Shown here: piece by piece, positions 7,959-61,707 of the stretch | Layout of the letters: each line of letters starts with the position of its first letter | How positions within the stretch are numbered: the stretch's first letter is position 1 | IMG/VR virus record: IMGVR_UViG_3300045988_035487 | Span: 1 to 64,000 of that record | Length of the DNA stretch: 64,000 nt | Strand: one strand, 5' to 3' | Source of the DNA: a virus | Program-made: the position numbers and the translations under genes | Notes under the pieces: model-generated | The model's input: the letters and a program-made list of their open reading frames with translations, nothing else | The model's database searches: none | Told to the model about the DNA's origin: nothing

Positions 7959-8046
7959 GGAGAGTTGGGTGAGTGGCTTAAACCAGTCCCCTGCTAAGGG
8001 ACCGAACCTCAAAAGGGTTCCGCTGGTTCGAATCCAGCACTCTCCG
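7959..8046 (+). tRNA. tRNA-Ser(GCT), type II
   Basis: Acceptor GGAGAGT/ACTCTCC. Anticodon stem GTCCC/GGGAC with loop CTGCTAA. Long variable arm CGAACCTCAAAAGGGTTCCG. T arm GCTGG-TTCGAAT-CCAGC. Confidence 0.85.
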
Positions 8047-8098
8047 CGCTGGCTAATAAGAGTTTGCGAAAATCATTATTAACCTAATTATTAGAATT

Positions 8099-13525: not shown

Positions 13526-13545
13526 GAGTCTTCGGACTCCTTTTA
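13525..13545 (+). terminator. hairpin GGAGTC-TTCG-GACTCC + TTTT
   Basis: Perfect 6-bp stem with tetraloop and a T-run, immediately after the purA-like stop. Confidence 0.55.
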
Positions 13546-13546
13546 C

Positions 13547-13618
13547 TGGGCTATGGTGTAGTGGTAGTCACACAAGGTTTTGGCTCTTGTAGCCCAGGTT
13601 CGAATCCTGGTAGCCCAA
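13547..13618 (+). tRNA. tRNA-Gln(TTG)
   Basis: Acceptor TGGGCTA/TAGCCCA. Anticodon stem CAAGG/TCTTG with loop TTTTGGC. T arm CCAGG-TTCGAAT-CCTGG. Confidence 0.75.
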
Positions 13619-13714
13619 CTACTAATTATTTCAGTTTAAAATAGAATTTATCATGAAGTCACTAACAACACTACTCTTTGAGAACTGTTAATTGTGAGTA
13701 AACATGGGCGTTCG

Positions 13715-13788
13715 GGGCCCGTATCTCAATCGGTTAGAGAAACTGACTCATAATCAGGAGGTTGTCGGTTCAAGTCCGGCCGGGCCCA
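13715..13788 (+). tRNA. tRNA-Met(CAT)
   Basis: Acceptor GGGCCCG/CGGGCCC. Anticodon loop CTCATAA. T arm GTCGG-TTCAAGT-CCGGC. Confidence 0.75.
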
Positions 13789-14076: not shown

Positions 14077-15534
14077 ATGGCAAAGAACATTATTCCGCAA
14101 GGAACTACAGCTGCTATTAAGCAGAGAGTTAACAAGTACGAGGAAACTCAGAAACAGAGAATGATTGAAGTGCTCCAAAGCAACGTGAAGTATGCTGATG
14201 CTCTGGGATTCATCGAAGGTGAAATCAAACAGTCCAAGAAAATGGCAAGTTTCAAATACTCGCTGCTTTGTTGGAAACCGGACGGTGTATATCAGTTGAA
14301 CAGAGCAATCAATGAAATCTTCGGTTCTGCCGTTAGTAAGGAGGATAACAGTCCTTCTGGAAACAGCAATATTGATACCGTAGACGTTGTTCTGGCAGAC
14401 GGTTCTCGTACCAAGGTTCCGTTTGGTAAAATCAGCCTTGAAGAATTGGGAGAAGATTCTGAAATCAACATCAACTATGACAATGACCGTCATTTGCTCC
14501 TTATTAAAGGACAATGCCAGTTCAAATACCAGTCATTAATTGATGACATTGTTGACAGAACTAAAGAGCTATTAGCATCAGAATCTATCTACAAAAACCA
14601 GGCTTTGGAAATCAGCAATCTGTCTGAACCTACTATCATGACACTTGCCGGCATTGAGAAACAATTCATGGTTCTTTCTAAGAAGACTGAATTTGAATTG
14701 CAACCGCTACGCTCAAGAATCTTGTATCCGGAGAAATGTCTGGCTAAAGGTATTCCATTGAAGTACGGTTGTTTGCTGGAAGGTAAATATGGTACAGGTA
14801 AGACCTTGCTGGCATTTAAGCTGGCTAAAGATGCTGTGACAAACGGCTGGTCATTCGTGTATTTGAAGAATCCTTCTCTTCTTGCAGAAACTCTGCGCAT
14901 GTGTAAAGTTGTTGACCGTTCGGGTCATGGTGTTGTCGTATTTGTTGAAGATATTGACCAAGTAACTAGAGGTAACAGAGATGCTGCAATGCAAGACATC
15001 CTGAATACTCTGGACGGTGGTGATACCAAAGATATGAACGTAATCACCTTGTTCACTACTAATCACATTGAATTGATTGAACCTACCTTCTTGAGAGGTA
15101 AGAGAATCGGCTCTGTGATTACTATGGACTGCCTGGACGCTGAAACTGCGGAGAAATTCATCCGTTCTACCTTCACCGCTGAAGAAGGATATACAATCGA
15201 CGATGATTTGAGTGAAGTATGTAACTACATTCAAGAAGCTGAAATTGCTCCGGCATTTATGGCTGAAATCGTTGAATCAACCAAATCCAAACTCATCTTT
15301 ACAGAAGAAACCCATGTAACATCGTTCCATATCAAAGCTAGCGTTGAATCTTATCAACGTCAACTTGGACTCGCATCCAAGAAAGCTGTTGTGGAAACTC
15401 CGGCTGAAAGATTGGTAAATGCTCTCAAACTCGTTCTGGGTACAGAGAAGCTTGAAGCAATTACTCAGATGTGTGAGTATGAGTGGGAACTTGACCGTAA
15501 GGACTATTCTACGGAGAAGAAGGACAACAAATAA
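14077..15534 (+). CDS. AAA+ ATPase (classic AAA family) with unique N-terminal domain
   Basis: Walker A LEGKYGTGKTLLA. Walker B VVFVEDIDQV. Sensor region FTTNHIELIEPTFLRGKRIG. 485 aa. Confidence 0.75.
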   Translation: MAKNIIPQGTTAAIKQRVNKYEETQKQRMIEVLQSNVKYADALGFIEGEIKQSKKMASFKYSLLCWKPDGVYQLNRAINEIFGSAVSKEDNSPSGNSNIDTVDVVLADGSRTKVPFGKISLEELGEDSEININYDNDRHLLLIKGQCQFKYQSLIDDIVDRTKELLASESIYKNQALEISNLSEPTIMTLAGIEKQFMVLSKKTEFELQPLRSRILYPEKCLAKGIPLKYGCLLEGKYGTGKTLLAFKLAKDAVTNGWSFVYLKNPSLLAETLRMCKVVDRSGHGVVVFVEDIDQVTRGNRDAAMQDILNTLDGGDTKDMNVITLFTTNHIELIEPTFLRGKRIGSVITMDCLDAETAEKFIRSTFTAEEGYTIDDDLSEVCNYIQEAEIAPAFMAEIVESTKSKLIFTEETHVTSFHIKASVESYQRQLGLASKKAVVETPAERLVNALKLVLGTEKLEAITQMCEYEWELDRKDYSTEKKDNK

Positions 15535-27521: not shown

Positions 27522-27819
27522 ACTAACAGTGTATCCTTCCTTTCTATATGAAGTACAACTATACCTCATTAGGAAGGATAGGGTAGAATGTGTAGGTTCT
27601 AAGTTCTATACTACTGATAAGCCTATTAAGGTAAGGGAATCGCAGTTTATTAAAGTCGACGATGAGATTACATGTGCTAAGTATATTACTTGGCTAGCAG
27701 CTCCCCTAGATTATTTAATGAACAACAATTTTAAAGTGTTAGAACGTGAGAATGCTAGACAAAGACGGAAATCCAATACAGGAGAAGACAAGCGAAGGAG
27801 TTCAAACCGTAGGCGCTGA
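27475..27819 (+). CDS. hypothetical protein
   Basis: 114-aa ORF overlapping both neighbours. Uncertain. Confidence 0.3.
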   Translation: MAKPTPPTVYHSGDVKLTVYPSFLYEVQLYLIRKDRVECVGSKFYTTDKPIKVRESQFIKVDDEITCAKYITWLAAPLDYLMNNNFKVLERENARQRRKSNTGEDKRRSSNRRR

Positions 27820-27826
27820 ACCTACT

Positions 27827-28387
27827 ATGAAGTATACGGAGCAGGTGATTGATAAGTCTAGACGTGTTTGTCCACTATCAACTGTAATGGTTGAGATGTT
27901 GGTAAAACAGATGTCAGCCGAACTTGCCAACCATGCTCTGTATATGACCTTTGCCAATTACTTTGAAGTAGAAGGGTTACCAAAGCTAGGTATTTACTGG
28001 AGAGGTCGTGCTAGGGAAGAATATTTGCATCATTCTTGGATATTTGAATATCTAACCACTAACGATGCTCTATTCCAATATCCGCCTGTTCCAGCCATTA
28101 ATGTTGAAATCACTGACAGAATCATGCCCTTTGCTGCTACAGTAGATAGGGAGATTGAGACTACTCGTGGTATTAATAAGATTGTAGACCAGGCTCAGAA
28201 AGAAAGTGATTGGGCTACATTCCAATGGTTGAATGGAGAGGATGAGGATGAAGGTATGTTAGTTAAAGAGCAAGTAGAAGAAGAATCTATTAGCCGTACT
28301 ATTCTTGATATGGCTAGAGAGCAGGCTACTTGGCTTCGTAAAGAGAATGCAATACTTGATTTCTATAATGGTCTAGGTCGCAAGTAA
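27827..28387 (+). CDS. ferritin-like diiron protein
   Basis: Ferritin-like helices with E...E..H motifs (ELANHALYMTFANYF, GRAREEYLHHSWIFEYL, KEQVEEE). Start is taken at the internal ATG at 27827. Confidence 0.5.
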   Translation: MKYTEQVIDKSRRVCPLSTVMVEMLVKQMSAELANHALYMTFANYFEVEGLPKLGIYWRGRAREEYLHHSWIFEYLTTNDALFQYPPVPAINVEITDRIMPFAATVDREIETTRGINKIVDQAQKESDWATFQWLNGEDEDEGMLVKEQVEEESISRTILDMAREQATWLRKENAILDFYNGLGRK

Positions 28388-44599: not shown

Positions 44600-45739
44600 A
44601 TGTTAGTAATTAAGAGAGACAAAAAAGTAGAACCTTTCGACGTTAATAAGATTGATGCTGCAATTACTAAGGCATTTAACGCTGTTAACGAGCCAATTGA
44701 TTCTGATATTCTTCAGGATATTAAAGATGAGTTGTATGTTAACAATATAGTTTCAGTTGAGGAGCTTCAAGACCAGTTAGAGAAAGCTCTTATGGCATGT
44801 GATTATTATGATGTTGCCAAGGCATTCATCTTGTACAGGCGTAAAAGGGCAGAGAGCAGGGCTTTAAATGAAAAGAAACAATTCATTAAAGACTATGCTA
44901 AAGCCAAGAATGCCGCAACTGGTAGTAAATACGATGCTAATGCTAATGTTACCGAGAAGAACATTGTAACCTTAAATGGAGAATTGTTCAAAGGTGATGT
45001 TATTAAGGTAAATCGTGCAATTCTTACTGATAAAATCAGAGAGTTATATGGAGAGGAGCTAGCTAAGGAATATATCCGTATGCTGGAACAACATTTACTT
45101 TATAAGCATGATGAAACATCGATTATGCCCTACTGCGTGGCTATCACTATGTATCCCTTTCTATTGGAGGGGTTACAGCCAATTGGAGGTTTGTCTGCCA
45201 GACCCAAGAACCTGGATTCTTTCTGTGGCATGTTCGTTAATCTGGTATTTGCGATTAGTTCTCAATTTGCAGGTGCAGTAGCAACTGGAGAGTTTCTAAT
45301 GTACTTTGATTACTTTGCTCGTAAAGAGTGGGGTGATGATTACTGGAAACGTCCAGAGGAAATGGTTGACAAACACAGAAATATTGACAAGATGTTAGAG
45401 CAGAAGTTCCAGCAGATTGTATATTCAATCAATCAGCCAGCAGCTGCTCGTAACTTCCAATCAGTATTCTGGAATATCAGTTATTTTGATAAGAACTACT
45501 TTGAAGGTATCTTTGGAGAGTTCTATTTCCCAGACGGTACACAACCTCAATGGGAATCTCTTAGTTGGTTGCAGAAGAAATTTGCTAAATGGTTTAATGA
45601 GGAACGTACTAAGTGTATTTTGACATTCCCTTGGAATTTCGATGGGGAATTAAAACCTTTGTTAATTGACTTGGAACTCCTAGCATTCATAGTAATACTA
45701 GGACAACAGGGGGCAAGCAACTTCAAGTGTGCAGCCTGA
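44600..45739 (+). CDS. nrdD: anaerobic ribonucleoside-triphosphate reductase NrdD, N-terminal part (ATP-cone + first half)
   Basis: N-terminal ATP-cone (VIKRDKKVEPFDVNKIDAAITKA). The ORF ends in a stop, and the C-terminal half resumes at 46634. The last residues are probably insertion-encoded. Confidence 0.7.
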   Translation: MLVIKRDKKVEPFDVNKIDAAITKAFNAVNEPIDSDILQDIKDELYVNNIVSVEELQDQLEKALMACDYYDVAKAFILYRRKRAESRALNEKKQFIKDYAKAKNAATGSKYDANANVTEKNIVTLNGELFKGDVIKVNRAILTDKIRELYGEELAKEYIRMLEQHLLYKHDETSIMPYCVAITMYPFLLEGLQPIGGLSARPKNLDSFCGMFVNLVFAISSQFAGAVATGEFLMYFDYFARKEWGDDYWKRPEEMVDKHRNIDKMLEQKFQQIVYSINQPAAARNFQSVFWNISYFDKNYFEGIFGEFYFPDGTQPQWESLSWLQKKFAKWFNEERTKCILTFPWNFDGELKPLLIDLELLAFIVILGQQGASNFKCAA

Positions 45740-46633
45740 CAGACTAAATACAGAGGACTTTAATGCATGGTGTGTGAACATAATGGATTAAGGTGTGCGA
45801 TAGTCGGAACTGTATGGTAACATACAGAGGGGAATTGAAGCATTCCCCCGTTTATTAAGTATGTCCATTTGGATTAGTTTCTATCGGGAATAAGTTGTAC
45901 CTTTGTCTCATTAAGTGAAACAATTAACAACTTTATAACTATGGAAACTAATGACAGAATTTGTTGCATATGTGGGGCTAGTGTTGGTAACGCACTGGCA
46001 GAGTAAGTAAATTCAAAGGAGATGGACAGTATTACTGTAGAAAGCACTATTTACAAATGTACAGACATGGAGAGATTTCTCAATTCACTCAAAAGGACGC
46101 TAATGAGTGGAGAGATAACATCTGTGTATGTAGAGGAGTACATGGTGAGGTCACTGGTGAAGTGACATTCGATTTAGACAAGCGAGAGTTCTTGCAACAG
46201 TTTAAAATTTACATTAGTAGTCAAGGTTACGCAGTAACTAAGACTGATGGTAAAACTCGTCTAATTCATAAGATTCTGACTGAAACAGAAGGTTATGATG
46301 CTAAGACCGTAGTAGACCACATTAATGGAAACAGACTGGACAATAGAATGGAGAATCTTAGGGTAGTATCACAAGCAATTAACGTAGTAAACAAGCACTA
46401 CGGTAAAGTTGTGGGAGTTAGTTATCACTCTAATAGAAGGGATGGTAAGTACTGGAGGAGCTACATTAAGAAAGATGGTAAATCTACAATCGAATGGTTT
46501 GATACAGAAGAGGAAGCTATTAAGAATAGGTTACTAAGAGAGATAGAAGTCTATGGTAAGCTAGTTAGTAGTGAGAATAAGAAATACGAATACTTAATAA
46601 ATCACCCGTCTGCCGAGGGCGGGGTGTAACAGA
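45740..46633 (+). mobile_element. insertion splitting nrdD: about 320-nt structured leader plus HNH homing endonuclease ORF (group I intron or free-standing HEG)
   Basis: Lies between the two nrdD halves and contains an HNH ORF in a different frame. Phage nrd genes are often interrupted by group I introns or HEGs. Confidence 0.6.
46057..46629 (+). CDS. HNH homing endonuclease (HNH + AP2-like DNA-binding region)
   Basis: Motif DHINGNRLDNRMENLRVVSQAINVVNKHYGK. Located inside nrdD. Confidence 0.7.
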   Translation: MYRHGEISQFTQKDANEWRDNICVCRGVHGEVTGEVTFDLDKREFLQQFKIYISSQGYAVTKTDGKTRLIHKILTETEGYDAKTVVDHINGNRLDNRMENLRVVSQAINVVNKHYGKVVGVSYHSNRRDGKYWRSYIKKDGKSTIEWFDTEEEAIKNRLLREIEVYGKLVSSENKKYEYLINHPSAEGGV

Positions 46634-47671
46634 ATGGTCGAAACTGTGGCATTGCTTACTGACGGTGAAGACGTCAAGGATACTGAATGGGCAGATTACA
46701 CTGCTGAAATGTATAGTAAAGGACACTCGTTCTTTACTTATATGTCCGATAGTCCTGATTCCTTATCTTCCTGTTGCAGACTTCGTAATGAGGTTACTGA
46801 TAATCAATTCAGTTATTCTCTTGGAGCTGGTGGTATTGCTACTGGTAGTAAGTCAGTAATGACCTTAAATATCAATAGGTTAGTTCAGGATGCAGTTAAT
46901 AATGGATATGATATGATTGAGTATTTGCGTGAGAATGTGAAGAAAGTTCATAAGTTCCAAACAGCATATAATGAATTGCTTAAAGACTATTTAAAAGACG
47001 GGTTGCTTACTGTATATACAGCTGGATTCATTGATATGAAGAAGCAGTATTTGACTATAGGTGTTAATGGAGTTATTGAGGCTGCGGAGTTCTTAGGAAT
47101 CCCAGTTAATGATAATCCAACTTATAGAGAGTTTATGCAATCTATCCTTAAAACTATCAGTGATGAAAATCGTAAAGCGAGAACTAAGGAGTTAATGTTT
47201 AACACAGAATTTGTTCCAGCAGAGAACCTTGGGGTTAAACATGCTAATTGGGACAGGAAAGCAGGTTATGTAGTTCCTAGAGATTGCTATAATAGCTATT
47301 TCTATGCTGTTGAAGACACATCTCTTACCGTACTTGACAAGTTCAAATTACATGGCAAGGAATATGTACAATACTTAGACGGAGGTAGTGCATTGCATAT
47401 GAATCTCGATGAACATCTTAGTAAGGAACAGTATCGTAACTTGTTGAGAGTGGCAGCAGTCAATGGTACTAATTATTTCACATTTAATATTCCAAATACT
47501 ATTTGTAATGATTGTGGACATATTGATAAGAGGTATCTCAAGGAATGTCCAAAATGTGGGAGTAAGAACGTTGATTATGCTACTAGAGTTATTGGTTATT
47601 TGAAACGTATTAGTAACTTTAGCCAAGCAAGGCAAGAGGAAGCTAGTAGAAGATTTTATACTCATGCTTAA
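46634..47671 (+). CDS. nrdD: anaerobic ribonucleoside-triphosphate reductase NrdD, C-terminal part (glycyl-radical domain)
   Basis: SSCCRL motif, C-terminal Zn site CNDCGH...CPKCGS, and glycyl radical motif RVIGYL. Confidence 0.7.
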   Translation: MVETVALLTDGEDVKDTEWADYTAEMYSKGHSFFTYMSDSPDSLSSCCRLRNEVTDNQFSYSLGAGGIATGSKSVMTLNINRLVQDAVNNGYDMIEYLRENVKKVHKFQTAYNELLKDYLKDGLLTVYTAGFIDMKKQYLTIGVNGVIEAAEFLGIPVNDNPTYREFMQSILKTISDENRKARTKELMFNTEFVPAENLGVKHANWDRKAGYVVPRDCYNSYFYAVEDTSLTVLDKFKLHGKEYVQYLDGGSALHMNLDEHLSKEQYRNLLRVAAVNGTNYFTFNIPNTICNDCGHIDKRYLKECPKCGSKNVDYATRVIGYLKRISNFSQARQEEASRRFYTHA

Positions 47672-51419: not shown

Positions 51420-52628
51420 ATGGATAAATTAGTAACTAAAGACAACAAGGGTAAAACTAGAGTAGTCGAGATTAGTTGCGAATGGGATGACGCTCAACAT
51501 GGCTTTGTTATAAGAAGAAAGACTTATCAGTATGGTGGCAAAGTAACTGTGCAGCCAGAGATATGGATATTTCAAGGCAAAGCCAAAAGGACTGTTGCAG
51601 AACAGGCTAAGTTAGAGTATAATTCTCATCTAAAGAAGTATGCAGATAAGGGTTATAAGCTACTTCCGTCCTCTGTTAACATAGAGGATGCGAAGGCAGT
51701 TGCAGCATTTGTTGAAGAACACCTAGGTGAGGGTGTTACTGATTCAAATGGATTTAAGAAGCATATGAAAGCCAAGAAGTACGAGGAGGTAGCTACTAAG
51801 GTATTTGATAAAATCAAGTACTGGCTAGGTTCTCGTAAGATAGACGGTGTCAGATGTTCTTTCTATCTAAAGGACGGAGAGATAGTATCTGCTAGTCGGG
51901 GAGGTGGCGATTATGACGCTTCTACAGTACACCTAAGAACACATCCCAAGATGATAGAGTTATTTAATAAGATGCCAGATTTGGTTCTCGATGGTGAACT
52001 TTACATTCATGGTCGGAGCTTGCAGTATATAAGTGGTACAGCAAGATTAGAATCTGGAGAATCACGCTGTAATGAGTTGGAATATTATATCTATGATACC
52101 ATGGATGCTAATATGACAGCACAGGAAAGGTGGAATTATATATCTGACGAAATAGCTCCTATACTTGGAATTGTGGATTTTGACCCTAATGCTAATTGGA
52201 ATGAAGATGACCTGAAGGTTAGAATAGTTCCAGAAGAGGAAGTAGTAGGGTGGACTAACATTCAGAAGCTTCATGATAAATATGTCAGTGAAGGGTTTGA
52301 AGGTATAGTTATTAGAGACCCGGACAAACCATATAACTATGGAGGACGTACTAATGCCATGATTAAAGTCAAAATGTATCAAGACGACGAGTTCGAGATT
52401 GTTGGCTATAGTGACGGATTACGTCCTGAAGATATGGTGTTCATATGTAAGACTCAGGCTGGTAAGGAATTTGAAGCCAAGCCTATGGGACCTAGAGAAC
52501 TTAAGTATGAATATCTAGACAGAATGGATGAACTTATCGGTAAAATGGCTACTGTCAAGTATTTCTACTACTCTGACGATGGCAGACCATTACAACCAGT
52601 ACTTAAATGCATCCGAGACTATGAATAA
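51420..52628 (+). CDS. ATP-dependent DNA ligase
   Basis: Motif I KIDGVRC. Motif III LDGELYIHG. Motif IV EGIVIRD. Motif V MIKVK. OB-like C-terminus. Confidence 0.7.
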   Translation: MDKLVTKDNKGKTRVVEISCEWDDAQHGFVIRRKTYQYGGKVTVQPEIWIFQGKAKRTVAEQAKLEYNSHLKKYADKGYKLLPSSVNIEDAKAVAAFVEEHLGEGVTDSNGFKKHMKAKKYEEVATKVFDKIKYWLGSRKIDGVRCSFYLKDGEIVSASRGGGDYDASTVHLRTHPKMIELFNKMPDLVLDGELYIHGRSLQYISGTARLESGESRCNELEYYIYDTMDANMTAQERWNYISDEIAPILGIVDFDPNANWNEDDLKVRIVPEEEVVGWTNIQKLHDKYVSEGFEGIVIRDPDKPYNYGGRTNAMIKVKMYQDDEFEIVGYSDGLRPEDMVFICKTQAGKEFEAKPMGPRELKYEYLDRMDELIGKMATVKYFYYSDDGRPLQPVLKCIRDYE

Positions 52629-52630
52629 GT

Positions 52631-52882
52631 ATGAATTACATTGTAGTATATAGGCAGCAAGGCGAACCTAAAATGGAGTTCTTTAAATATCGCGACGAAT
52701 CAGACGTTGCATATAAAAGAAGTACATTAATTAGGAATGAAGATGATGTGATTGATATTATGCGAAAGTATTATCAACCAGATGATGATATCTTTGTTAT
52801 TAGAGAAACACTATTAAATGTAGATGATTTCTCTGATGCAGAGTTAATTAAAATACTATCTAATGCATTGATGTATCTGTGA
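52631..52882 (+). CDS. hypothetical protein
   Basis: 83-aa ORF. Confidence 0.4.
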   Translation: MNYIVVYRQQGEPKMEFFKYRDESDVAYKRSTLIRNEDDVIDIMRKYYQPDDDIFVIRETLLNVDDFSDAELIKILSNALMYL

Positions 52883-53076
52883 TTAACAAAACTTCAATAT
52901 CTATAAGCGCTAAGGTGGCAGACTTATTGACTTCTCTGGTAGGGAATACTCTATCAGAGGAGGATAAAAGTCAGCTATACGAAACTGTATTTGATTTCTA
53001 TAGAGACCTTCTTAGAGGTTATGACAGTGAGACTATCAATGAAATTCAAGAACAACTAAAAGGTGTAATATGGTAA
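52879..53076 (+). CDS. hypothetical protein
   Basis: 65-aa ORF. Confidence 0.35.
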   Translation: MINKTSISISAKVADLLTSLVGNTLSEEDKSQLYETVFDFYRDLLRGYDSETINEIQEQLKGVIW

Positions 53077-53372
53077 AAGGGAACTTTATAGAAGTAGTAA
53101 ATTCATTGGAAGCTATCAACTCCAAATGTTTCAAATTGTCTGAAATGGGAATTGATATTGCCGACAGTGATATAGTCAGTAATGCTGAATGTATAGCCAT
53201 GGCTATATTTAAGGAGAACTATACTGACGAAGGCATAGACTGGATTATGTGGTGGGTTTACGAGAAAGCCGGAGACCCAGATATAAAAGCCTATGACGAA
53301 GAGGGTAAAGAAATTATAAGCACATTGGATGAGCTTTACGAATATGTTGAATCATCCTACAAGATTGTTTAA
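53070..53372 (+). CDS. hypothetical acidic protein
   Basis: 100-aa ORF. Confidence 0.45.
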   Translation: MVKGNFIEVVNSLEAINSKCFKLSEMGIDIADSDIVSNAECIAMAIFKENYTDEGIDWIMWWVYEKAGDPDIKAYDEEGKEIISTLDELYEYVESSYKIV

Positions 53373-53389
53373 TTTTAATTTATAAGATT

Positions 53390-53593
53390 ATGAACGAGAC
53401 ATTTGACTTTGGAGAAGCTCTATCTATGATGAGAGCAGGTATGACAGTTATCAACTTAAGTAAGAGACGTTACAGAATGAAGGAAGGCAATATCATCTGT
53501 CTTCCCATAGCTGGTTCTAACCAGTACTACGTTGTTACTAAGTGGTTTCCTGATGCCATTTTAAGTCAAGATTGGAGTCTAGCTGAAGATTAG
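53390..53593 (+). CDS. hypothetical protein
   Basis: 67-aa ORF. Confidence 0.4.
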   Translation: MNETFDFGEALSMMRAGMTVINLSKRRYRMKEGNIICLPIAGSNQYYVVTKWFPDAILSQDWSLAED

Positions 53594-53620
53594 CTGTAAG
53601 CAATTATTGACTAGTTTTGA

Positions 53621-55009
53621 ATGCAATTAAATCAATCACCTAAAATCAATATTAACTATTGTGCTAAGATTGTGGAAATCCACGATTTTACACCACACCC
53701 AAACCCTAAGTGCGAGCGTCTTAAATGTGCTCATATAGACGGATATACTATTTCGGTCAGTAAAGATACAGAACCTGGAATGTATGTATATTTCCCTATA
53801 GGATGTGCTATTGACTATTCTTTCTTGTCAGCTAATAATCAGTTCAGACATGTCGAGCTGAATGCTGACAAGGAAGCAGCACCTGGGTATTTCGAAGATA
53901 ACGGAAGAGTGAAGATTATTAAGTTGCAGGGCCATGTTTCAGAAGGATTTATTATGTCTATAGAGTCCATTACTAAATGGATAAGCTCTCTTGGACATAC
54001 CGAAGCTGTAACTGGAATAGATGCCGGCACTGAATTTGATAGGGTAGGAAACCTGTTTATTTGTAAGAAGTACGTAGTAAAGAATAGAACTTCTGGCTCT
54101 AATAATAAAACTAGAACTGGTAAGCAGCCTAAAGGGTTGAGCAAGTTAGTTGACAATCAGTTTAGATTCCACTACGATACTATTCTTATTAAGAAGTGTC
54201 CACGGATAATTAAGCCAAATGATATTATTAGTATTACTAGTAAGGTCCATGGCACGTCTGGAATATCAGCAGATGTGTTGTGCAAAAGGCAATTGAAGTG
54301 GAAAGACAAGGTGGCTGGTTGGCTTACCTATGTGCCTGACACTGCGTATGACTATCTGTGGTCCTCTAGAAAGGTAGTAAAGAACCAATATTATAATAAG
54401 GAAGTTAGTGAAGGTTACTACGGCTGTGATGTGTGGGGAGAAGCTCATAAAGTATTACAGCCATTTTTAACTAAAGGATTAACTCTCTATTATGAAATTA
54501 TAGGCTGGCTTCCTACTGGAGGAGCAATTCAGTCAATGGGAGGTAAAGCTTATGATTATGGTTACGATATGCCAATATACGACCCTACTACTCAAACTAC
54601 TCCATATAAGTATAATGTGCATTTTGGTATCAGAGTGTACCGTATTACTTATACTAATCCTGACGGAATAGTGTATGAATTTAGTGCTAGACAAGTGCAA
54701 CAATGGTGTAAAGATAAGGGCCTCACTCCGGTAACAGAACTATATTATGGATATGCGAAGGATTTATATCCGGATATATCTGTATCTGAACACTGGAATG
54801 AGAATTTCATACAAAGATTAGCCGAGGACAAGAATTTCTTCATGGAAGAACTATCTCCAGAATGTCACAATGATGTGCCACATGAAGGTATAGTAATTCG
54901 TATAGAAGACGGTTTGTCTGGGGCATATAAGTTAAAATGTAATAGATTCTTATTTGCAGAATCTAAAGCATTAGATAAAGGTGAAGTTGATATAGAATCT
55001 GACCAATGA
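53621..55009 (+). CDS. RNA ligase (Rnl2-like nucleotidyltransferase) with N-terminal extension
   Basis: Motif I KVHGTSG (compare T4 Rnl2 KIHGTN). Motif IV EGIVIRIEDG. Motif V AYKLKCNRF. Confidence 0.5.
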   Translation: MQLNQSPKININYCAKIVEIHDFTPHPNPKCERLKCAHIDGYTISVSKDTEPGMYVYFPIGCAIDYSFLSANNQFRHVELNADKEAAPGYFEDNGRVKIIKLQGHVSEGFIMSIESITKWISSLGHTEAVTGIDAGTEFDRVGNLFICKKYVVKNRTSGSNNKTRTGKQPKGLSKLVDNQFRFHYDTILIKKCPRIIKPNDIISITSKVHGTSGISADVLCKRQLKWKDKVAGWLTYVPDTAYDYLWSSRKVVKNQYYNKEVSEGYYGCDVWGEAHKVLQPFLTKGLTLYYEIIGWLPTGGAIQSMGGKAYDYGYDMPIYDPTTQTTPYKYNVHFGIRVYRITYTNPDGIVYEFSARQVQQWCKDKGLTPVTELYYGYAKDLYPDISVSEHWNENFIQRLAEDKNFFMEELSPECHNDVPHEGIVIRIEDGLSGAYKLKCNRFLFAESKALDKGEVDIESDQ

Positions 55010-55380
55010 ACAGGTATATTATAACTTGCATTAATGATTTTGAGACATATAGTGGATATGCTGCATACGCAGAGAGCTTGTTCGATGAAGACATGAACAA
55101 TGCAGCTGATGCATATGCTTTCGAAATCGCAGTTGGTATAGTTCCAGATTCGTTTATAGTTACTACAGAAGGTTATGAATATCATAACATGACTGAAGAA
55201 GCTATAAGACAGGTAGTTGATAGTATCGAGTGGGAAGATTACTACAACTATAAAATTACTCCTTATGAAGGAACAGATGAAGAATTTGATAAACTCATAT
55301 TAATATATGATGGAAGACTTAGACAAAGAAATTCGGACTTTAGAGTCGATGAAGGAGAAATTGAACCAGTTCAAGGCTGA
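55006..55380 (+). CDS. hypothetical acidic protein
   Basis: 124-aa ORF. Confidence 0.45.
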   Translation: MNRYIITCINDFETYSGYAAYAESLFDEDMNNAADAYAFEIAVGIVPDSFIVTTEGYEYHNMTEEAIRQVVDSIEWEDYYNYKITPYEGTDEEFDKLILIYDGRLRQRNSDFRVDEGEIEPVQG

Positions 55381-55699
55381 GTTCGCTAAAGAAATATTTA
55401 AGAAGGCAGACGAAGGAGCTATCTCTAAGGAGGTAGCTCTTGACCTGCTGACTGTCTATGACTTATTACCAATAGCTCCTTGGATAGAACTTCCTACTTT
55501 CATGGATAGCTATGATTACTTTGATAGGTATTCAACAATCAAGTATATGAACTGCTTAGACATAGCCGATTTCAAGGATGAAGATGGTAATGTATCACAG
55601 TATACCCAATTTCCTGACCTAACGTGGGATGAAGCTATTAATGAACTATATGAGTTCGTTAAAGAGAAGCAAGTAATTGGTTGTGTGTATGATTGGTGA
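55307..55699 (+). CDS. hypothetical protein
   Basis: 130-aa ORF overlapping the previous one. Start uncertain. Confidence 0.4.
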   Translation: MMEDLDKEIRTLESMKEKLNQFKAEFAKEIFKKADEGAISKEVALDLLTVYDLLPIAPWIELPTFMDSYDYFDRYSTIKYMNCLDIADFKDEDGNVSQYTQFPDLTWDEAINELYEFVKEKQVIGCVYDW

Positions 55700-56453
55700 T
55701 TTTAAATTTTATGAAGTAGGCGGTAAGATTAGAGATGAGTTCTTGGGTCTTATCAATAAGGATGTTGACTATGTAGCTGTGCCTACAGAGGCAGTCTATA
55801 AAAAAATTCACCCATGTGAAGCTCAGCTCAGTCCAGCCCAGCTAATGTTCAAAGCATTAAAGAGTTACTTAGAGGGGCAGAAGTTTGAAATCTTCTTAGT
55901 AACTCCAGAGTGCTACACTATACGTGCTAAATTCCCAGAAGGATATAAGTATCAAGGTGTAGCAGATTTTGTAATGGCTAGAAAGGAAGTAGGATATGTT
56001 CCAGGTACTAGGACTCCTATAGTAGAACCAGGAAATCTGTATGATGATTTATCACGCAGAGATTTCACTATCAATGCTATGGCTAAAGACCCCGATACTG
56101 GAGAAATCATTGACTACTTTTATGGTAAGCATGATATAACGAATGCTTTGATAAGAACTCCCCTCGACCCTGTAACAACATTCGATGATGACCCTCTTAG
56201 GATACTTAGAGCCATTAGGTTTGCGGTTACTAAGAGATTCACAATAGAGCAAACAACTTGGCAAGCTATGGTGTTATATGATTATGATTCTAAAATGCCA
56301 GTAGTGTCAGAGGAGAGAATTAGAGAGGAACTGATTAAGTGTTTTAGATGCAATACCATTAGAACCTTAACATATCTTGATTACCTTCCAAGACTTAGAG
56401 ATTATATCTTTAGTAAGACCAATTTATGGCTTAAGCCAACTAACGAGAAATGA
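55677..56453 (+). CDS. cca: tRNA nucleotidyltransferase (CCA-adding enzyme family), minimal head/neck form
   Basis: GGKIRDEFLG...DVDYV (GGxVRD...DxD), RRDFTINAM and DPLRILRAIRFA are class II CCA/poly(A) polymerase signatures. Confidence 0.75.
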   Translation: MVVCMIGDFKFYEVGGKIRDEFLGLINKDVDYVAVPTEAVYKKIHPCEAQLSPAQLMFKALKSYLEGQKFEIFLVTPECYTIRAKFPEGYKYQGVADFVMARKEVGYVPGTRTPIVEPGNLYDDLSRRDFTINAMAKDPDTGEIIDYFYGKHDITNALIRTPLDPVTTFDDDPLRILRAIRFAVTKRFTIEQTTWQAMVLYDYDSKMPVVSEERIREELIKCFRCNTIRTLTYLDYLPRLRDYIFSKTNLWLKPTNEK

Positions 56454-56848
56454 GTAGTTATTTATCATTTTACTTAGTGCCTAGGGCACATCCGGAAGAG
56501 AAGTTGCTACTTCAATCTTTCAGCAGGTCTAACGAGGTATATCAGAGATTCTCTGACAATCTCAATATAGCATATGCTGGTAATGAGGAGAAGTATACTA
56601 AACTCACTATTAGTGATGTTGAATCAGTAATTCAAGACATTGATGCTGACATTACTAAAGCAGAAACGAGACGTACAGAATATGAGAAGTTCTGTTACGG
56701 TAATCCTGAATCTATAGAGGAGATAATATCCACTAAAGAGTATATACGAGATTTACAAAGCACAAGAGATTATATATCGTTTATACGGGACGTTTTAACT
56801 GATTTAGATTATAGTGGATTCAGTGATGTCCTATGTAATATTGATTGA
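56450..56848 (+). CDS. hypothetical protein
   Basis: 132-aa ORF. Confidence 0.45.
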   Translation: MSSYLSFYLVPRAHPEEKLLLQSFSRSNEVYQRFSDNLNIAYAGNEEKYTKLTISDVESVIQDIDADITKAETRRTEYEKFCYGNPESIEEIISTKEYIRDLQSTRDYISFIRDVLTDLDYSGFSDVLCNID

Positions 56849-57102
56849 TGGAAACATTTGAGTTCTTAGTAACATCAACAGCAATGGTAACGCTTCAAGA
56901 GCATATAAAGATACAAGCTCAAGATTTAGACGATGCCATTGCAAAGATAGAAGATAGAGATTACTATGAGGAAGATGGAGAAATTATAGGCAAAGAGTAT
57001 GAAATCATTGATTATGATAAGGTACATGAGATAGCTGACTGGAAAGATGTTGTCAAATCTAAACCTAAATCTGAAGAATCTTTATGGACAAGCGAGTATT
57101 AA
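56845..57102 (+). CDS. hypothetical acidic protein
   Basis: 85-aa ORF. Confidence 0.4.
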   Translation: MMETFEFLVTSTAMVTLQEHIKIQAQDLDDAIAKIEDRDYYEEDGEIIGKEYEIIDYDKVHEIADWKDVVKSKPKSEESLWTSEY

Positions 57103-58004
57103 TAATTTGTAGAGGTATTCAAGGTTCAGGTAAATCTACTTGGGCTAAACAATGGTGTCACGAAGACCCAGAGCACAGAGTAAGATTTAACAATGATGAT
57201 ATTCGTAACATGTTAGGTGATTACTGGGTTCCTACTAGGGAGAAGCTAGTTACTGAAGCTAAAGCTAATATGATAACGTTTGCTTTGATTAAAGGTTACG
57301 ATGTAGTAGTTGATAATATGAATCTGAATCCCAAAGAGGATGAATGGATTAGAACTCTATGTGCTAATATAGAGAAGGACAAGGGAATACATGTTGATAT
57401 AGAGTACAAGGATTTCTGGACCCCTGTTGACGAATGTATTCGCCGCGATGCTAAAAGAGAACATCCTATAGGTGAGAAGGTTATTAGGCAAACTTGGAAG
57501 CGTTATAAGGACTTCATAATCCATGAGGAAATTATGGCAGCCAAAGCTAAGTCATTAGTTCAAGATACTAACCTACCAGCAGCAATCATAGTAGATATGG
57601 ATGCAACTGTATGTTTAAATACTAGTGGTCGTCCTTTCTACGGAGAAGGTGCAGCTGAAGGTATGCTTACTGATGAGCCTATTACTCCTGTAATTGAGCT
57701 TATTAGAAACTTCTGTGATAATTATCCAGCTAAGTTAATAATTCTAACTGGTAGAGAGGATACTCCTGAAGTTCGTAAAGCTACGGAACAGTGGTTAGAG
57801 AACAATTGGTTGCATCCTGACATACTTCTCATGCGTCCTGCTAAGAGCTTTACTGCTGGTCCTATATGTAAGAAGAAACTGTATGAGGACAATATCAAAG
57901 GCAAGTTCTATATACCTTTCGTACTTGAAGACAATTGTAAGTGTGTGGAGATGTGGAGAAATGAAGGCTTGATTTGTCTACAACCGAATGAGGGTAAGTT
58001 CTAA
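57084..58004 (+). CDS. pnk: polynucleotide kinase-phosphatase (T4 Pnk-like)
   Basis: N-terminal P-loop kinase ICRGIQGSGKST. C-terminal HAD phosphatase IIVDMDATVC (DxDxT). Confidence 0.7.
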   Translation: MDKRVLIICRGIQGSGKSTWAKQWCHEDPEHRVRFNNDDIRNMLGDYWVPTREKLVTEAKANMITFALIKGYDVVVDNMNLNPKEDEWIRTLCANIEKDKGIHVDIEYKDFWTPVDECIRRDAKREHPIGEKVIRQTWKRYKDFIIHEEIMAAKAKSLVQDTNLPAAIIVDMDATVCLNTSGRPFYGEGAAEGMLTDEPITPVIELIRNFCDNYPAKLIILTGREDTPEVRKATEQWLENNWLHPDILLMRPAKSFTAGPICKKKLYEDNIKGKFYIPFVLEDNCKCVEMWRNEGLICLQPNEGKF

Positions 58005-58487: not shown

Positions 58488-58677
58488 TTTTGATGATTCT
58501 ACCATAGGTAATTTGCTTGCTATGGCAGCACCTTGGATGTTAATAGGAATGATAGTTGGGCTTATAGCTCTGTTTACATGTCCTGTTTTAATGGCAGAAT
58601 GTTTCTGTTTAGCTCTAGTCTTCATTACTATAGACAGGTATTACGAAATTAAAGGCGAGAAGAATGGTAATAGATAA
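58444..58677 (+). CDS. small membrane protein
   Basis: 77-aa ORF with two TM helices. Confidence 0.4.
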   Translation: MKKGISNMNKWLRSNFDDSTIGNLLAMAAPWMLIGMIVGLIALFTCPVLMAECFCLALVFITIDRYYEIKGEKNGNR

Positions 58678-59287
58678 TTTTGACCAAATACTAGACATTC
58701 TGGAATTTAATAATTCAGATGAGTTCTATTTCTTGCAAATTATACAACGCAAGAAAGACGGCTGTGTTACTGATACTGGTAATAACGGATATAGGACTGT
58801 TAAAACTTACTATATATTCAGTAGGGAACAGCTAGAGCGCAAAAGAGCTAAAATTACTGAATTGTGCCAGAGCAATCATGCAAGAGCATACATTACCTTG
58901 AATAGACGTAATGCTGAAGAAGTGGCATGTACTGCTATACAAGAGTATGCCAAACTAATCCAAGAAGGCAACTGCTATCAAGGATATCGCATTTGGGATT
59001 CATCTTGTGGGCATACTAGAGCTAGAGGCTACAAGCCACTATGGGTTGTGGATGTTGATAGTAAGGACGAGAACTATCTTAACACAATCATAGAAATTGT
59101 TAATAGTTGTAGAGGTGCACAAGACATCAAAGTTAAACATGTAATTCCAACTGCACATGGTTATCATCTTATAACGATAGGGTTTGATACTAATCAGTTC
59201 GCTCAACAGCTAGCTATTAGGAATCTGGATTCTATAGATATACAGAAAGATAACCCAACGTTGCTGTATTTCGATACAGCTGATTAA
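58664..59287 (+). CDS. hypothetical protein
   Basis: 207-aa ORF. Confidence 0.5.
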   Translation: MVIDNFDQILDILEFNNSDEFYFLQIIQRKKDGCVTDTGNNGYRTVKTYYIFSREQLERKRAKITELCQSNHARAYITLNRRNAEEVACTAIQEYAKLIQEGNCYQGYRIWDSSCGHTRARGYKPLWVVDVDSKDENYLNTIIEIVNSCRGAQDIKVKHVIPTAHGYHLITIGFDTNQFAQQLAIRNLDSIDIQKDNPTLLYFDTAD

Positions 59288-59347: not shown

Positions 59348-59572
59348 ATGAGTAATTTACCAGCTGGAGCAGAACGTGACCCATTTGCTCCTTATAATGT
59401 GGAAGAGAAAGTCTTCAAAGTTGACATAAATGCTAAGGGATTAGCATGGTATGAATATTACGGACATTTGGATATAGATGAAGCCATAGAAGCTATTAAG
59501 AGCAGAATACAAGCCGCACTTAGTAGCTTAGGAGATGTTGATATTAGTACTGTTGATATTGAGGTTTCATGA
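59348..59572 (+). CDS. hypothetical protein
   Basis: 74-aa ORF. Confidence 0.4.
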   Translation: MSNLPAGAERDPFAPYNVEEKVFKVDINAKGLAWYEYYGHLDIDEAIEAIKSRIQAALSSLGDVDISTVDIEVS

Positions 59573-61707
59573 TATATCTAGTCAGTAATCAAAGGTCACT
59601 ATTTGAAACTGACGCTTATAAGGAATTATCTCTATCTGATGCTATAGACATGATTATGCCACATAGTTGGGTAGAATATGATTCGGAAACTGCTGGTTTA
59701 GACCCCTATACAAAACCATTACTGTGTACTCAGTATGGTTTAGGGGAAGACCAAATAGTCGTTGACAATGTAACTATTCCAATTGAGAAGCTTAAATGTG
59801 TCCTTGAAGACCCTACTAAGACTTTCTTAGGTTGGAATATTGCATTTGATTTAAGGTTTCTATATCACCATAAAATAGTTCCTTATAATGTATGGGATGG
59901 AATGATTGCTGAGAAGTTACTCTATCTTGGCTATCCTCCCCAGTTTCATAGTCTTTCTTTAAAAGCAGCAGCTGATAACTATCTTGGTATAGATATTGAT
60001 AAAACTGTTCGAGGGCAGATTATCACTCAAGGATTAACTATACCAGTGGTACAATATGCTGCTGGTGATGTTATGTATCTTACTAAGATTAAGGAGAAGC
60101 AAGATGCAGAATTAGAGAAGAAGGAATTAACTAAAGCTGCTGAATTTGAAATGAAGTTTACTCCAGTAATTGCCTATATGGAATATTGTGGAGCTAAACT
60201 TGACCCAGTAAAATGGAAGCAGAAGATGATTCGAGATAAAGAGGAAGTTAATAAAGCAGAAGCTAAGCTTAACGAATGGGTTGAAAATTATTATAATGAA
60301 CATAAATCTTCTGAAGGCTATATTAAAGCCTTCACAGAGGAAGTGGACATTATGCATGAGAATCAACTATTTGACAAAGTAGGTCCTCATATGGGACAAA
60401 TAAAGAGGGTTTGTAATCCACAAACTGGGCTAATTCATTATGAATATGACAAACCTTTCCCATATGTTACCAAGAATCTACAAGGCGATTTGTTCAGTGG
60501 ATTTGATGCTTCAGCTAAGTGTAACATTAACTGGTCTAGTAGTCAACAAGTAGTTCCACTATTTGAAATGTTGGGACTTAATTGTACTACCATTGATGCT
60601 AAAACTAAGCAGAAGAAGAAATCTGCTGATATTAAGTTGATAAAGCCACAAGCACATAAGTGTAGTATAGTTCCTCTTTATGTAGAATATAAGAAGGCTA
60701 AAATTCTAGTTGATACCTTTGGACAGAAGTTCATAGATAAAATTAATCCAGTAAGTGGTAGGATTCATCCAGACTATTTTCAATTAGGAGCTGATACTGG
60801 GCGGTTATCCGCTACTAACCCGTCTTTAATGAATTTGCCACATGACCCATTTACTAGGTCGTGTTTCGTTTCTGATACTGGGTATAAATGGATTAGTTGT
60901 GATTACAAAGGGCAGGAATCCTTCTTAATGGCATCTATTGCTAATGATAAGGCGATGTTGGAAGAGCTTATCTATGGTAGTGGTGACTTACACAGTCTAA
61001 CTGCCAGAATAGTATTTACAGACATCCCTGATGATACTCCACTATCTGAAGTTAAAGCTAAATACAAACCTCTTAGAGATGCTGCTAAAGGGTATGAATT
61101 TTGTTTTAATTATGGTGGAGATTGGAACACTTTAATGAAGAATTATGGTCTTACTAAGGCAAGAGCTCAAGAAGTATATAATAACTATATGTCTGGTTTC
61201 TCTGGACTAAAGAGATATCAGGAGTTTAGGAGAGAAGATGTCCTTGATAAGGGATATATCCTTCTTAATCCTATTACTAAGCATAAGGCATTTATATATG
61301 ACTGGGACAACCTGTGTAAAATCGACAGTGAACTTGGGTCTCCAGAAGCTAAGTATATGCTAGGGCGTAATGGGGACAATTATTATAAAACAAGCTCACA
61401 GCATTTGAGAAGAAGGTTATCTGATTCTATGAAGCAATCCATTAACTATCCGATACAGCATGCTGGTTCTATGTGTTTCAAATTGTCTGCAATTAAGTTC
61501 TTCAATTGGCTAAGGAAGAACAATCTGCTATTTATAGTTAAATATTGTGTTCCCGTACATGATGAACATAATGTTGAAGCACCGGATGATATTGCTGAAG
61601 AAGTAGGTAATATACTAGTTAAATGTATGGAAAGTGGAGGCGAACCATTTTGTGTACGTGCTCATTTAGGTGCTGATATATCAATTGAAGACCATTGGGT
61701 ACATTAA
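59569..61707 (+). CDS. polA: family A DNA polymerase (Pol I-like) with 3'-5' exonuclease domain
   Basis: Exo I EYDSETAGLD. Pol motif A CDYKGQESFL. Motif B RDAAKGYEFCFNYGGD. Motif C PVHDEHNVE. Confidence 0.85.
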   Translation: MIYLVSNQRSLFETDAYKELSLSDAIDMIMPHSWVEYDSETAGLDPYTKPLLCTQYGLGEDQIVVDNVTIPIEKLKCVLEDPTKTFLGWNIAFDLRFLYHHKIVPYNVWDGMIAEKLLYLGYPPQFHSLSLKAAADNYLGIDIDKTVRGQIITQGLTIPVVQYAAGDVMYLTKIKEKQDAELEKKELTKAAEFEMKFTPVIAYMEYCGAKLDPVKWKQKMIRDKEEVNKAEAKLNEWVENYYNEHKSSEGYIKAFTEEVDIMHENQLFDKVGPHMGQIKRVCNPQTGLIHYEYDKPFPYVTKNLQGDLFSGFDASAKCNINWSSSQQVVPLFEMLGLNCTTIDAKTKQKKKSADIKLIKPQAHKCSIVPLYVEYKKAKILVDTFGQKFIDKINPVSGRIHPDYFQLGADTGRLSATNPSLMNLPHDPFTRSCFVSDTGYKWISCDYKGQESFLMASIANDKAMLEELIYGSGDLHSLTARIVFTDIPDDTPLSEVKAKYKPLRDAAKGYEFCFNYGGDWNTLMKNYGLTKARAQEVYNNYMSGFSGLKRYQEFRREDVLDKGYILLNPITKHKAFIYDWDNLCKIDSELGSPEAKYMLGRNGDNYYKTSSQHLRRRLSDSMKQSINYPIQHAGSMCFKLSAIKFFNWLRKNNLLFIVKYCVPVHDEHNVEAPDDIAEEVGNILVKCMESGGEPFCVRAHLGADISIEDHWVH

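Follow-up and report, generated by a model that had tools for sequence, protein, structure and literature searches.

A probable tRNA end-repair gene set beside a replicative DNA ligase in a human-gut phage

The four end-processing enzymes and their genomic setting

We describe a run of genes at positions 51,420 to 58,004 of a phage DNA window, the window being the whole 64,000-nucleotide stretch that was analysed (positions 1 to 64,000 of the IMG/VR virus record IMGVR_UViG_3300045988_035487). The run encodes an ATP-dependent DNA ligase, an RNA ligase (Rnl), a short tRNA nucleotidyltransferase of the CCA-adding type (hereafter the CCA enzyme) and a bifunctional polynucleotide 5'-kinase/3'-phosphatase (Pnkp). 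An initial annotation of the sequence had placed four such enzymes within 6.5 kb and taken them together as one RNA/tRNA repair toolkit. All four correspond to + strand open reading frames (ORFs) exactly where it had put them (51420-52628, 53621-55009, 55677-56453 and 57084-58004), and profile searches of each protein against Pfam and PHROG strongly support the enzyme identities. From the analyses below, we propose a narrower grouping: as one joint reading, it is probable that the RNA ligase, the CCA enzyme and Pnkp make up an RNA, most likely tRNA, end-repair set beside a replicative DNA ligase, and that the 6.5-kb stretch is part of one long co-directional operon in the replication/nucleotide-metabolism module of a Bacteroidota-type human-gut phage.

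The RNA ligase (53621-55009, + strand; 462 amino acids (aa)) matches phrog_968 at 8e-42. Pfam gives only a weak hint of an N-terminal OB domain, and the sole NCBIfam match, to TIGR02306 (the DraRnl family; aa 17-214, 1.3e-6), scores 27.5 bits and does not reach the equivalog cut-off of 151 bits. PDB sequence searches returned spurious antibody matches only, whether the query was the ligase itself or a narrow family profile (A1). An AlphaFold (AF2) model of the ligase, built with 32 homologues (pLDDT 84), was compared with the PDB by Foldseek: the top 13 matches are all entries of NgrRnl from Naegleria gruberi, aligned full-length (E=2.5e-14 to 1.7e-12, TMt 0.59-0.68), and T4 Rnl2 and other RNA ligases match the nucleotidyltransferase (NTase) half alone, at E values of at least 2e-5 (T4 Rnl2 2e-5, TMq 0.28). 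In the model, an OB domain (about aa 1-150) is followed by a linker (156-183) and a C-terminal NTase domain; the linker and aa 251-268 are the low-confidence segments (pLDDT<50). A broader profile (A2; 37 sequences, 33-74% identity) also matches NgrRnl at 8e-7, pairing ligase aa 13-121 with NgrRnl OB residues 7-109 and aligning the EG...K segment of the phage ligase with NgrRnl motifs IV and V.

The catalytic motifs are complete: motif I is K208-V-H-G-T-S, motif III has E292, motif IV has E422-G423 (EGIVIR at aa 422) and motif V is K437-x-K439. Across the 37 sequences, K208, E292, E422 and K437/K439 are invariant; within motif I, G211 is also invariant, and H210, T212 and S213 are kept in at least 90% of the family. 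This motif I is of the Rnl2-like KxHGT(N/S) type (KIHGTN in T4 Rnl2), and it probably explains why the initial annotation called the protein Rnl2-like. Motif I is the only part for which that name holds. Membership in the Rnl2 family was rejected, as the NTase domain is C-terminal, an OB fold of about 150 aa lies before it and the protein ends about 23 aa past motif V. Because of the OB-then-NTase order and the full-length NgrRnl matches, the ligase is instead assigned the Rnl5 architecture; what defines the Rnl5 family is an OB module at the N-terminus joined to an NTase domain at the C-terminus, and its occurrence in bacteriophages has been reported (PMC7261155).

Like the Rnl5 enzymes NgrRnl and DraRnl (PMC7261155, PMC4408790, PMC5397189), the phage ligase has no C-terminal appendage beyond its OB and NTase domains, and the motif I Lys, the motif III and IV Glu and the motif V Lys are conserved. 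It differs from them in being about 120 aa longer, with the low-confidence linker and insertions, and in having KxHGT instead of KxDG as motif I, so that NgrRnl D172, a catalytic-metal ligand in motif I, is replaced by His210 in the phage ligase and in at least 90% of its family. It thus represents a separate, longer clade, far under the TIGR02306 cut-off. This clade comprises 2,545 clusters at 50% identity, and the best 150 representatives are mostly 425-480 aa long; relatives occur in Prevotella Lak megaphages (42% identity), in a Desulfovibrio phage and in hundreds of actinophages, where they are annotated as "RNA ligase."

The CCA enzyme is a class II tRNA nucleotidyltransferase encoded at 55689-56453 (+ strand; PF01743 1e-16, phrog_24229 2e-64). 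The length of 258 aa given in the initial annotation is obtained from an upstream TTG at 55677; homologues start at the position of the ATG at 55689, which gives 254 aa. The PF01743 score is 61.6 bits against a cut-off of 23, and the NCBIfam equivalog score is 105 bits against a cut-off of 290. The protein contains GGKIRD...DVD (rather than the GGxVRD first noted), RRDFTINA (aa 127), DYFYG, DDPLR and DDDPLRILRAIRF (aa 170), and its templating motif EDxxR begins with Asp. In a 37-sequence alignment, the class II motifs GGK[IV]RD...DVD, RRDFT[IV]NA and DDPLR are invariant, and so is a C-terminal peptide, LWLKPTxE, which is unstructured in the AF2 model. Sequence matches in the PDB reach aa 97-235 only, and the top ones include both A-adding and CCA-adding enzymes. 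The model (pLDDT 87) superposes on the head and neck of class II enzymes (Foldseek TMq ~0.68). Since it covers only about 240 of the 370-425 residues of the solved enzymes (TMt ~0.45), the protein consists of just the head and neck; the body and tail, which bind the tRNA, are absent. In comparison with the class II enzymes of Planococcus (6qy6) and Thermotoga (3h37) and the A-adding enzyme of Aquifex (1vfg), the phage enzyme thus keeps the head/neck fold and motifs A-E, but has about 254 aa instead of 370-450, lacks body and tail and ends in LWLKPTxE.

This short form is not a truncation but the conserved form of a family: the best 120 homologues, all from gut-phage contigs, are almost all 241-285 aa long, most of the family falling at 244-270 aa. 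A cultured example is gp255 of Microbacterium phage Big4 (248 aa, 43% identical). We also considered whether short CCA enzymes are general among phages, which the 417-aa enzyme of PVP-SE1 rules out. Among cellular proteins, the closest homologues (36-42% identity) are encoded in the chromosomes of Bacteroidota, Ignavibacteria and other members of the FCB group. Our literature search found no paper characterising any phage CCA-adding enzyme.

Pnkp (57084-58004, + strand; 306 aa) matches PF25109 at 5e-25 (88.7 bits against a cut-off of 27.6), AAA_33 at 1e-15 and phrog_505 at 3e-60. Its N-terminal P-loop kinase carries GIQGSGKS (aa 11) and NNDDIR (aa 36), and its C-terminal HAD phosphatase carries DMDAT (aa 171). 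The protein aligns end to end with Capnocytophaga Pnkp1 (PDB 4xrp, 3e-31); its match to T4 Pnk (1ltq, 6e-15) is weaker, and it is accordingly closer to Pnkp1 than to T4 Pnkp. Hence the earlier description of it as T4-type is right about the two-domain architecture, although the nearest protein of solved structure is a bacterial one. Pnkp1 belongs to the Pnkp1-Rnl-Hen1 complex of Capnocytophaga gingivalis, a Bacteroidota bacterium (4xrp/4xru). The likeness to this complex is limited to Pnkp: the profile of the phage RNA ligase matches no chain of it, the ligase type differs, and no Hen1 methyltransferase domain was found in the approximately 50 window ORFs scanned with Pfam.

The first gene of the run encodes the DNA ligase (51420-52628, + strand; 402 aa; PF01068 5e-16, phrog_114 4e-49). 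An N-terminal region of about 110 aa has no assignment and is followed by an NTase domain and a putative OB domain. The PF01068 score is 59.4 bits against a Pfam cut-off of 26.2, and the phrog_114 alignment extends to the C-terminus, where aa 341-399 match PF14743 (DNA-ligase OB) weakly, under the Pfam cut-off (E=0.008). Motifs I (K140, KIDG), III (LDGELY), IIIa (YYIYD), IV (EGIVIR, aa 294) and V (MIKVK) are present, and the best PDB match is the DNA ligase 6imj (4e-12), with the motif I lysines aligned. The catalytic lysines are thus intact in both ligases (K140 and K208, the latter invariant in its family). The motifs KIDG, KVHGTS, EGIVIR, RRDFTINA and DDDPLRILRAIRF all read as the initial annotation had quoted them, EGIVIR occurring in both ligases.

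The window is 96.9% identical over the repair region to MT835470.1, an unannotated 117-kb "Bacteriophage sp." contig from human faeces. Every credible window gene is on the + strand, and the GC content is 35-41%. In our profile searches, the 5' 24 kb proved to be a tRNA array and the remainder a replication and nucleotide-metabolism module with genes for a DnaB-like helicase, a Toprim primase, a PD-(D/E)XK nuclease, a split NrdD, a RecD/PIF1-type helicase, dUTPase, the DNA ligase, PolA, a CYTH protein and ThyX. From dUTPase to PolA the genes are tightly packed, with intergenic gaps of -74 to +60 nt and many overlapping start and stop codons. This stretch has one terminator-like site, within the ligase gene, against 3.6 expected from shuffled sequence. 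A scan for sigma-70 promoters and terminators found nothing beyond chance, the tool having no coverage of Bacteroidota promoters.

Two features of this region were noted in passing. NrdD is encoded in two ORFs (44600-45739 and 46634-47671) interrupted by an HNH endonuclease gene (46057-46629), and in one relative (locus L004) it is in three pieces, split by HNH and GIY-YIG endonuclease genes; these interruptions are probably insertions of the intron or intein type. Between the RNA ligase and CCA genes (window 55009-55689), an indel of about 287 bp separates near-identical relatives, the short version being found in the window and in loci L026 and L027 and the long version in MT835470 and most others. 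The small ORFs at 55006-55380 and 55307-55699 share 74 nt, so that at least one of their start calls is doubtful.

Gene order in related loci

We retrieved 80 viral loci via the CCA enzyme (71-100% identity), among which PolA identity falls to 42-56%. In 79 of these loci, which are all those extending far enough, Pnkp comes immediately after the CCA gene. In 31 of the 80, a Thg1-like gene directly follows Pnkp; no Thg1 gene was found in our scans of the window ORFs. In 27 loci the order is rearranged to Rnl-PolA-orf132-CCA-Pnkp-Thg1-orf207, and PolA is 42-48% identical there. Two further relatives, retrieved via the ligase (56% and 74% identity), have the order helicase, dUTPase, DNA ligase, small ORFs, Rnl, small ORFs, Pnkp, PolA. 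In one of these (locus L002), a Thg1-like gene stands immediately after Pnkp; it lies at 12958-13743 of that locus and matches PF04446, the tRNA-His guanylyltransferase/3'-5' polymerase family. Since gene order is kept in 80 related loci down to 42-56% PolA identity, the clustering of the repair genes is not a matter of chance. The stable core is CCA-Pnkp, with or without the Thg1-like gene, together with orf207 and with Rnl nearby, and the DNA ligase follows the replication genes.

This conservation also bears on whether the DNA ligase should be counted among the RNA-repair enzymes, as the initial annotation had done. In favour of a single toolkit of four, all four genes are on the same strand inside 6.5 kb, and the DNA ligase also has a weak match to PF09414 (RNA_ligase, 9e-9). 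However, the best scores of the 402-aa protein are to DNA ligase models (PF01068 and phrog_114), its PDB matches are DNA ligases, and the weak, sub-threshold match at its C-terminal region is to a DNA-ligase OB domain. Five small ORFs keep its gene apart from that of the RNA ligase. Its position is that of a replication gene, after dUTPase, in all relatives compared, and in the rearranged layout it is not close to the CCA-Pnkp-Thg1 block. Because it does not travel with the CCA-Pnkp block on rearrangement, we assign it to the replication module and judge it to be a replicative ligase, a neighbour of the RNA-repair set rather than a member. A single four-enzyme toolkit is therefore very improbable.

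Two conserved genes of the block have no assigned function. The product of orf132 (56450-56848, + strand; 132 aa), whose start overlaps the stop of the CCA gene (ATGA), had no match in Pfam and PHROG searches. It adjoins the CCA gene in both layouts, on the downstream side in the window and on the upstream side in the rearranged loci; a third group of relatives lacks it. It is possible that it acts as a partner of the domain-poor CCA enzyme. The 207-aa product of orf207 (58664-59287, + strand; phrog_14949) is encoded downstream of Pnkp or of the Thg1-like gene in every architecture, and orf207 may possibly be a further member of the module. Its invariant residues include D130-x-D132 and G166-x-H168. 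Searches with the protein and with its family profile gave no significant PDB or Pfam match, and a reading of the DxD/GxH pattern as AEP-primase-like was dropped as unsupported by any fold or family match. Two database entries on very short contigs (P0463 and P0477) appear to be fusions of orf207 with an AAA_33 kinase domain.

tRNA genes and the host lineage

The tRNA array reported by the initial annotation is real: 22 credible tRNA genes, including a CUA-anticodon suppressor, lie on the + strand at 549-24479. The CCA enzyme and the repair set would presumably act on these tRNAs. None of the 22 genes encodes the 3'-CCA, and all have C at position 74. The same holds for all 79 unique tRNAs of close relatives; loci retrieved via the PurA-like gene of the array, in order to obtain diverged tRNA arrays, were all about 99% identical. 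These counts, and the retention of all catalytic motifs in the CCA enzyme, would fit a role in tRNA maturation, in which the phage enzyme adds CCA to abundant phage tRNA transcripts and relieves a step limited by the host. Such a role is compatible with repair.

The pattern, however, extends beyond this phage. In the unrelated Bacteroides phage crAss001, 20 of 22 tRNA genes (at 1682-5807 of the locus compared) have C74 and only two encode CCA; a search of 100 kb of this phage found neither a CCA enzyme nor an RNA ligase. Likewise, all eight tRNA genes found beside cca genes in FCB-group bacteria have C74 and no encoded CCA. We had considered C74 without CCA as a phage feature tied to the short CCA enzyme, for example to a CA-adding specialist; the occurrence of the same pattern in crAss001 and the FCB group led us to reject this. 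CCA-less C74 tRNA genes look like a trait of the host lineage, a lineage-wide signature of 3' processing. Bacteria of this group, encoding no CCA, must possess a capable CCA enzyme of their own, and in crAss001 the host enzyme suffices. Because crAss001 has CCA-less tRNA genes without a CCA enzyme, the phage CCA enzyme would be an accessory rather than a simple necessity for maturation. Moreover, the CCA gene is linked not to the tRNA array, from which it lies about 30-55 kb away, but to the adjacent Pnkp and the Thg1-like gene, and it is missing here in some relatives that keep Rnl and Pnkp. The comparison with crAss001 and the FCB group weakens maturation as the sole function, and we regard that account as doubtful, though possible.

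crAss001 also resembles the window in its replication genes. The kinase of crAss001 gp61 (Pnk) is 61% identical to the kinase domain of the window Pnkp (57084-58004), and gp61 adjoins a DNA polymerase I that is 41% identical to the window PolA (59569-61707; crAss001 gp61 and gp64 were compared). In crAss001, kinase and phosphatase are separate genes. Part of the replication module of the window thus appears related to that of crAss-like (Crassvirales) phages, and together with the tRNA pattern these similarities support a Bacteroidota-type host. A short CCA enzyme 76% identical to that of the window is found on a 153-kb contig, CALEBD010000406.1, in a metagenome-assembled genome of "uncultured Clostridium sp."; this is probably a mis-binned phage contig and is unreliable for host assignment.

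Several further features of the array region were recorded. The first tRNA call (549-621, anticodon CUA) is labelled tRNA-Pyl by ARAGORN and is a candidate amber suppressor. A gut phage with such a suppressor may recode TAG in its late genes; the window ORFs all read through normally in the standard code. On the minus strand, an ARAGORN call of tRNA-Arg(tcg) at 7986-8062, with six of seven acceptor pairs, overlaps the + strand tRNA-Ser(gct) at 7959-8047 and is most likely a false positive. Inside the array, a PurA-like (adenylosuccinate-synthetase-like) gene at 12458-13525 encodes a 355-aa protein that matches PF00709 at 5e-33; the protein falls short of cellular PurA in length, although cellular enzymes are its best matches in the PDB (2e-20). 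It may possibly be of the PurZ type, which would imply 2-aminoadenine DNA. Accessory genes at 5910-7871, 14077-15534 and 27746-28387 encode a 653-aa SPFH/Band-7 protein, which is present in crAss001 too, an AAA+/STAND-like ATPase and a ferritin-like protein, respectively.

Proposed tRNA end repair and its relation to known systems

T4 Pnkp converts 5'-OH ends and 3'-P or 2',3'-cyclic-P ends to 5'-P and 3'-OH. By the same chemistry, the phage Pnkp would turn broken RNA ends, a 5'-OH and a 3'-phosphate or 2',3'-cyclic phosphate, into a 5'-P and a 3'-OH that can be ligated or extended. The Rnl5-type ligase would then seal healed breaks in a duplex or stem context via lysyl-AMP at K208. Where the break lies in the 3' tail, no ligase would be required: Pnkp would remove the phosphate and the CCA enzyme would then restore the end. 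In the relatives, the Thg1-like 3'-5' polymerase may rebuild tRNA 5' ends, using the 5'-phosphate made by the kinase. The pairing of CCA with Pnkp fits such a "dephosphorylate, then extend" route, and the pairing of Pnkp with Thg1 fits "phosphorylate, then extend 3'-5'." Acting together, these enzymes would let host and phage tRNAs stay functional in infection, also after attack by host tRNA-cleaving defences. We infer the substrates, the reaction order and the counter-defence purpose from enzyme identity and gene linkage.

Several observations weigh against this tRNA end-repair proposal. The CCA enzyme has no body and tail domains, which bind tRNA in all characterised class II enzymes. The CCA gene is missing at this position in both ligase-retrieved relatives that keep Rnl and Pnkp. 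Rnl5 enzymes seal duplex nicks, and the classic ligase of anticodon-loop repair is Rnl1. Loss of DraRnl is reported to make Deinococcus sensitive to radiation (PMC5397189), and this phenotype points to general nucleic-acid repair rather than to tRNA. The repair genes, furthermore, lie inside a replication module, and crAss001 has its Pnk beside PolA with no RNA ligase.

Some of these points would also suit end processing in DNA replication or repair, in which Pnkp, the Rnl5-type ligase and the DNA ligase would seal nicks in DNA or at RNA-DNA junctions rather than in tRNA, acting for example on ribonucleotide-terminated 3' ends that arise in phage DNA replication or repair. The genes are flanked by the helicase, dUTPase and DNA ligase on one side and by PolA on the other. 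Rnl5 enzymes, which prefer Mn2+, seal 3'-OH/5'-PO4 duplex nicks with an RNA 3'-OH strand, the test substrate having a DNA 5'-P strand (PMC7261155), and the reported protection of Deinococcus against radiation by DraRnl (PMC5397189) would agree with such a role. Because crAss001 keeps a 61%-identical Pnk beside PolA without an RNA ligase, Pnkp could serve DNA metabolism. Yet the tightest neighbours of Pnkp belong to tRNA-specific families (CCA-adding in 79/80 loci, Thg1-like in 31/80), the CCA-Pnkp block stays intact when PolA moves away, and the phage already has a dedicated DNA ligase of its own. We therefore consider DNA end processing unlikely as the function of the set and favour the repair of tRNA ends.

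A purpose in counter-defence is plausible; the CCA-Pnkp-Thg1 linkage strengthens it, and it matches the interpretation of a survey of jumbo phages (>200 kb) by Iyer, Anantharaman, Krishnan, Burroughs and Aravind (2021; PMC7824862, section 3.4.9). That survey described a large-phage RNA-repair toolkit in which RNA ligases, PNK-HAD and a CCA-adding enzyme accompany tRNA arrays, joined in sporadic cases by Thg1, and read it as a counter to host attacks on tRNA. The gut phage follows the same logic and shares most parts. The differences are that the survey concerned Rnl1, Rnl2 and RtcB ligases, whereas a phage of about 117 kb carries here an Rnl5-architecture ligase, a head-and-neck-only CCA enzyme and, in its family, a fixed adjacent CCA-Pnkp-Thg1-like block. 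The toolkit concept is thus already published (Iyer et al. 2021), and two components are unusual variants: the CCA enzyme in its minimal form and the clade of long Rnl5-type ligases.

The best-known repair pair of this kind is that of T4, in which Pnkp and Rnl1 repair the tRNA anticodon loop against PrrC. T4, a lytic phage that also has tRNA genes, shares with the window a two-domain kinase-phosphatase and an ATP-dependent RNA ligase. However, the phage ligase is not Rnl1, whose structure (2c5u) ranks only 22nd in the Foldseek search (E=1.5e-3) with a partial alignment; the phage Pnkp is distant from the T4 enzyme (6e-15 against 3e-31 for Pnkp1); and T4 has no CCA-adding or Thg1-like enzyme.

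A more specific idea is that the CCA-Pnkp-(Thg1-like) block is a dedicated pathway for repair of the tRNA acceptor end, evolved in Bacteroidota phages against tRNA 3'-tail cutters such as Cas12a3. We think this rather improbable in so specific a form. In such a pathway, Pnkp would clear 3'-phosphates and phosphorylate the 5'-OH, the short CCA enzyme would rebuild the 3' tail, perhaps helped by its C-terminal peptide, by orf132 or by orf207, and the Thg1-like enzyme would rebuild the 5' strand. Cas12a3, which comes from an unidentified Bacteroidetes bacterium among others, cuts tRNA 3' tails, and the report on it speaks of "yet unknown means of resistance" to tRNA-tail-cutting defence (PMC12851939). 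The cut is made 3-5 nt from the tRNA 3' end and the discriminator is also lost (PMC12851939); because it is removed too, CCA addition alone would be insufficient against Cas12a3 damage. We regard the Cas12a3 link as a lead, not as evidence.

If the proposed repair of tRNA ends is correct, tRNA maintenance in abundant human-gut phages with Bacteroidota-type hosts uses parts unlike those of T4: the ligase is of the Rnl5 type, the kinase-phosphatase resembles Pnkp1, the CCA enzyme is minimal, and relatives add a Thg1-like enzyme. The large clade to which this Rnl5-architecture ligase belongs has a conserved viral context and could give the Rnl5 family a physiological role. A natural head-and-neck-only class II CCA enzyme would offer a test of how much enzyme tRNA recognition needs. 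Finally, the CCA-Pnkp adjacency would offer a testable idea of how phages might counter the tRNA-tail-cleaving defences discovered recently.

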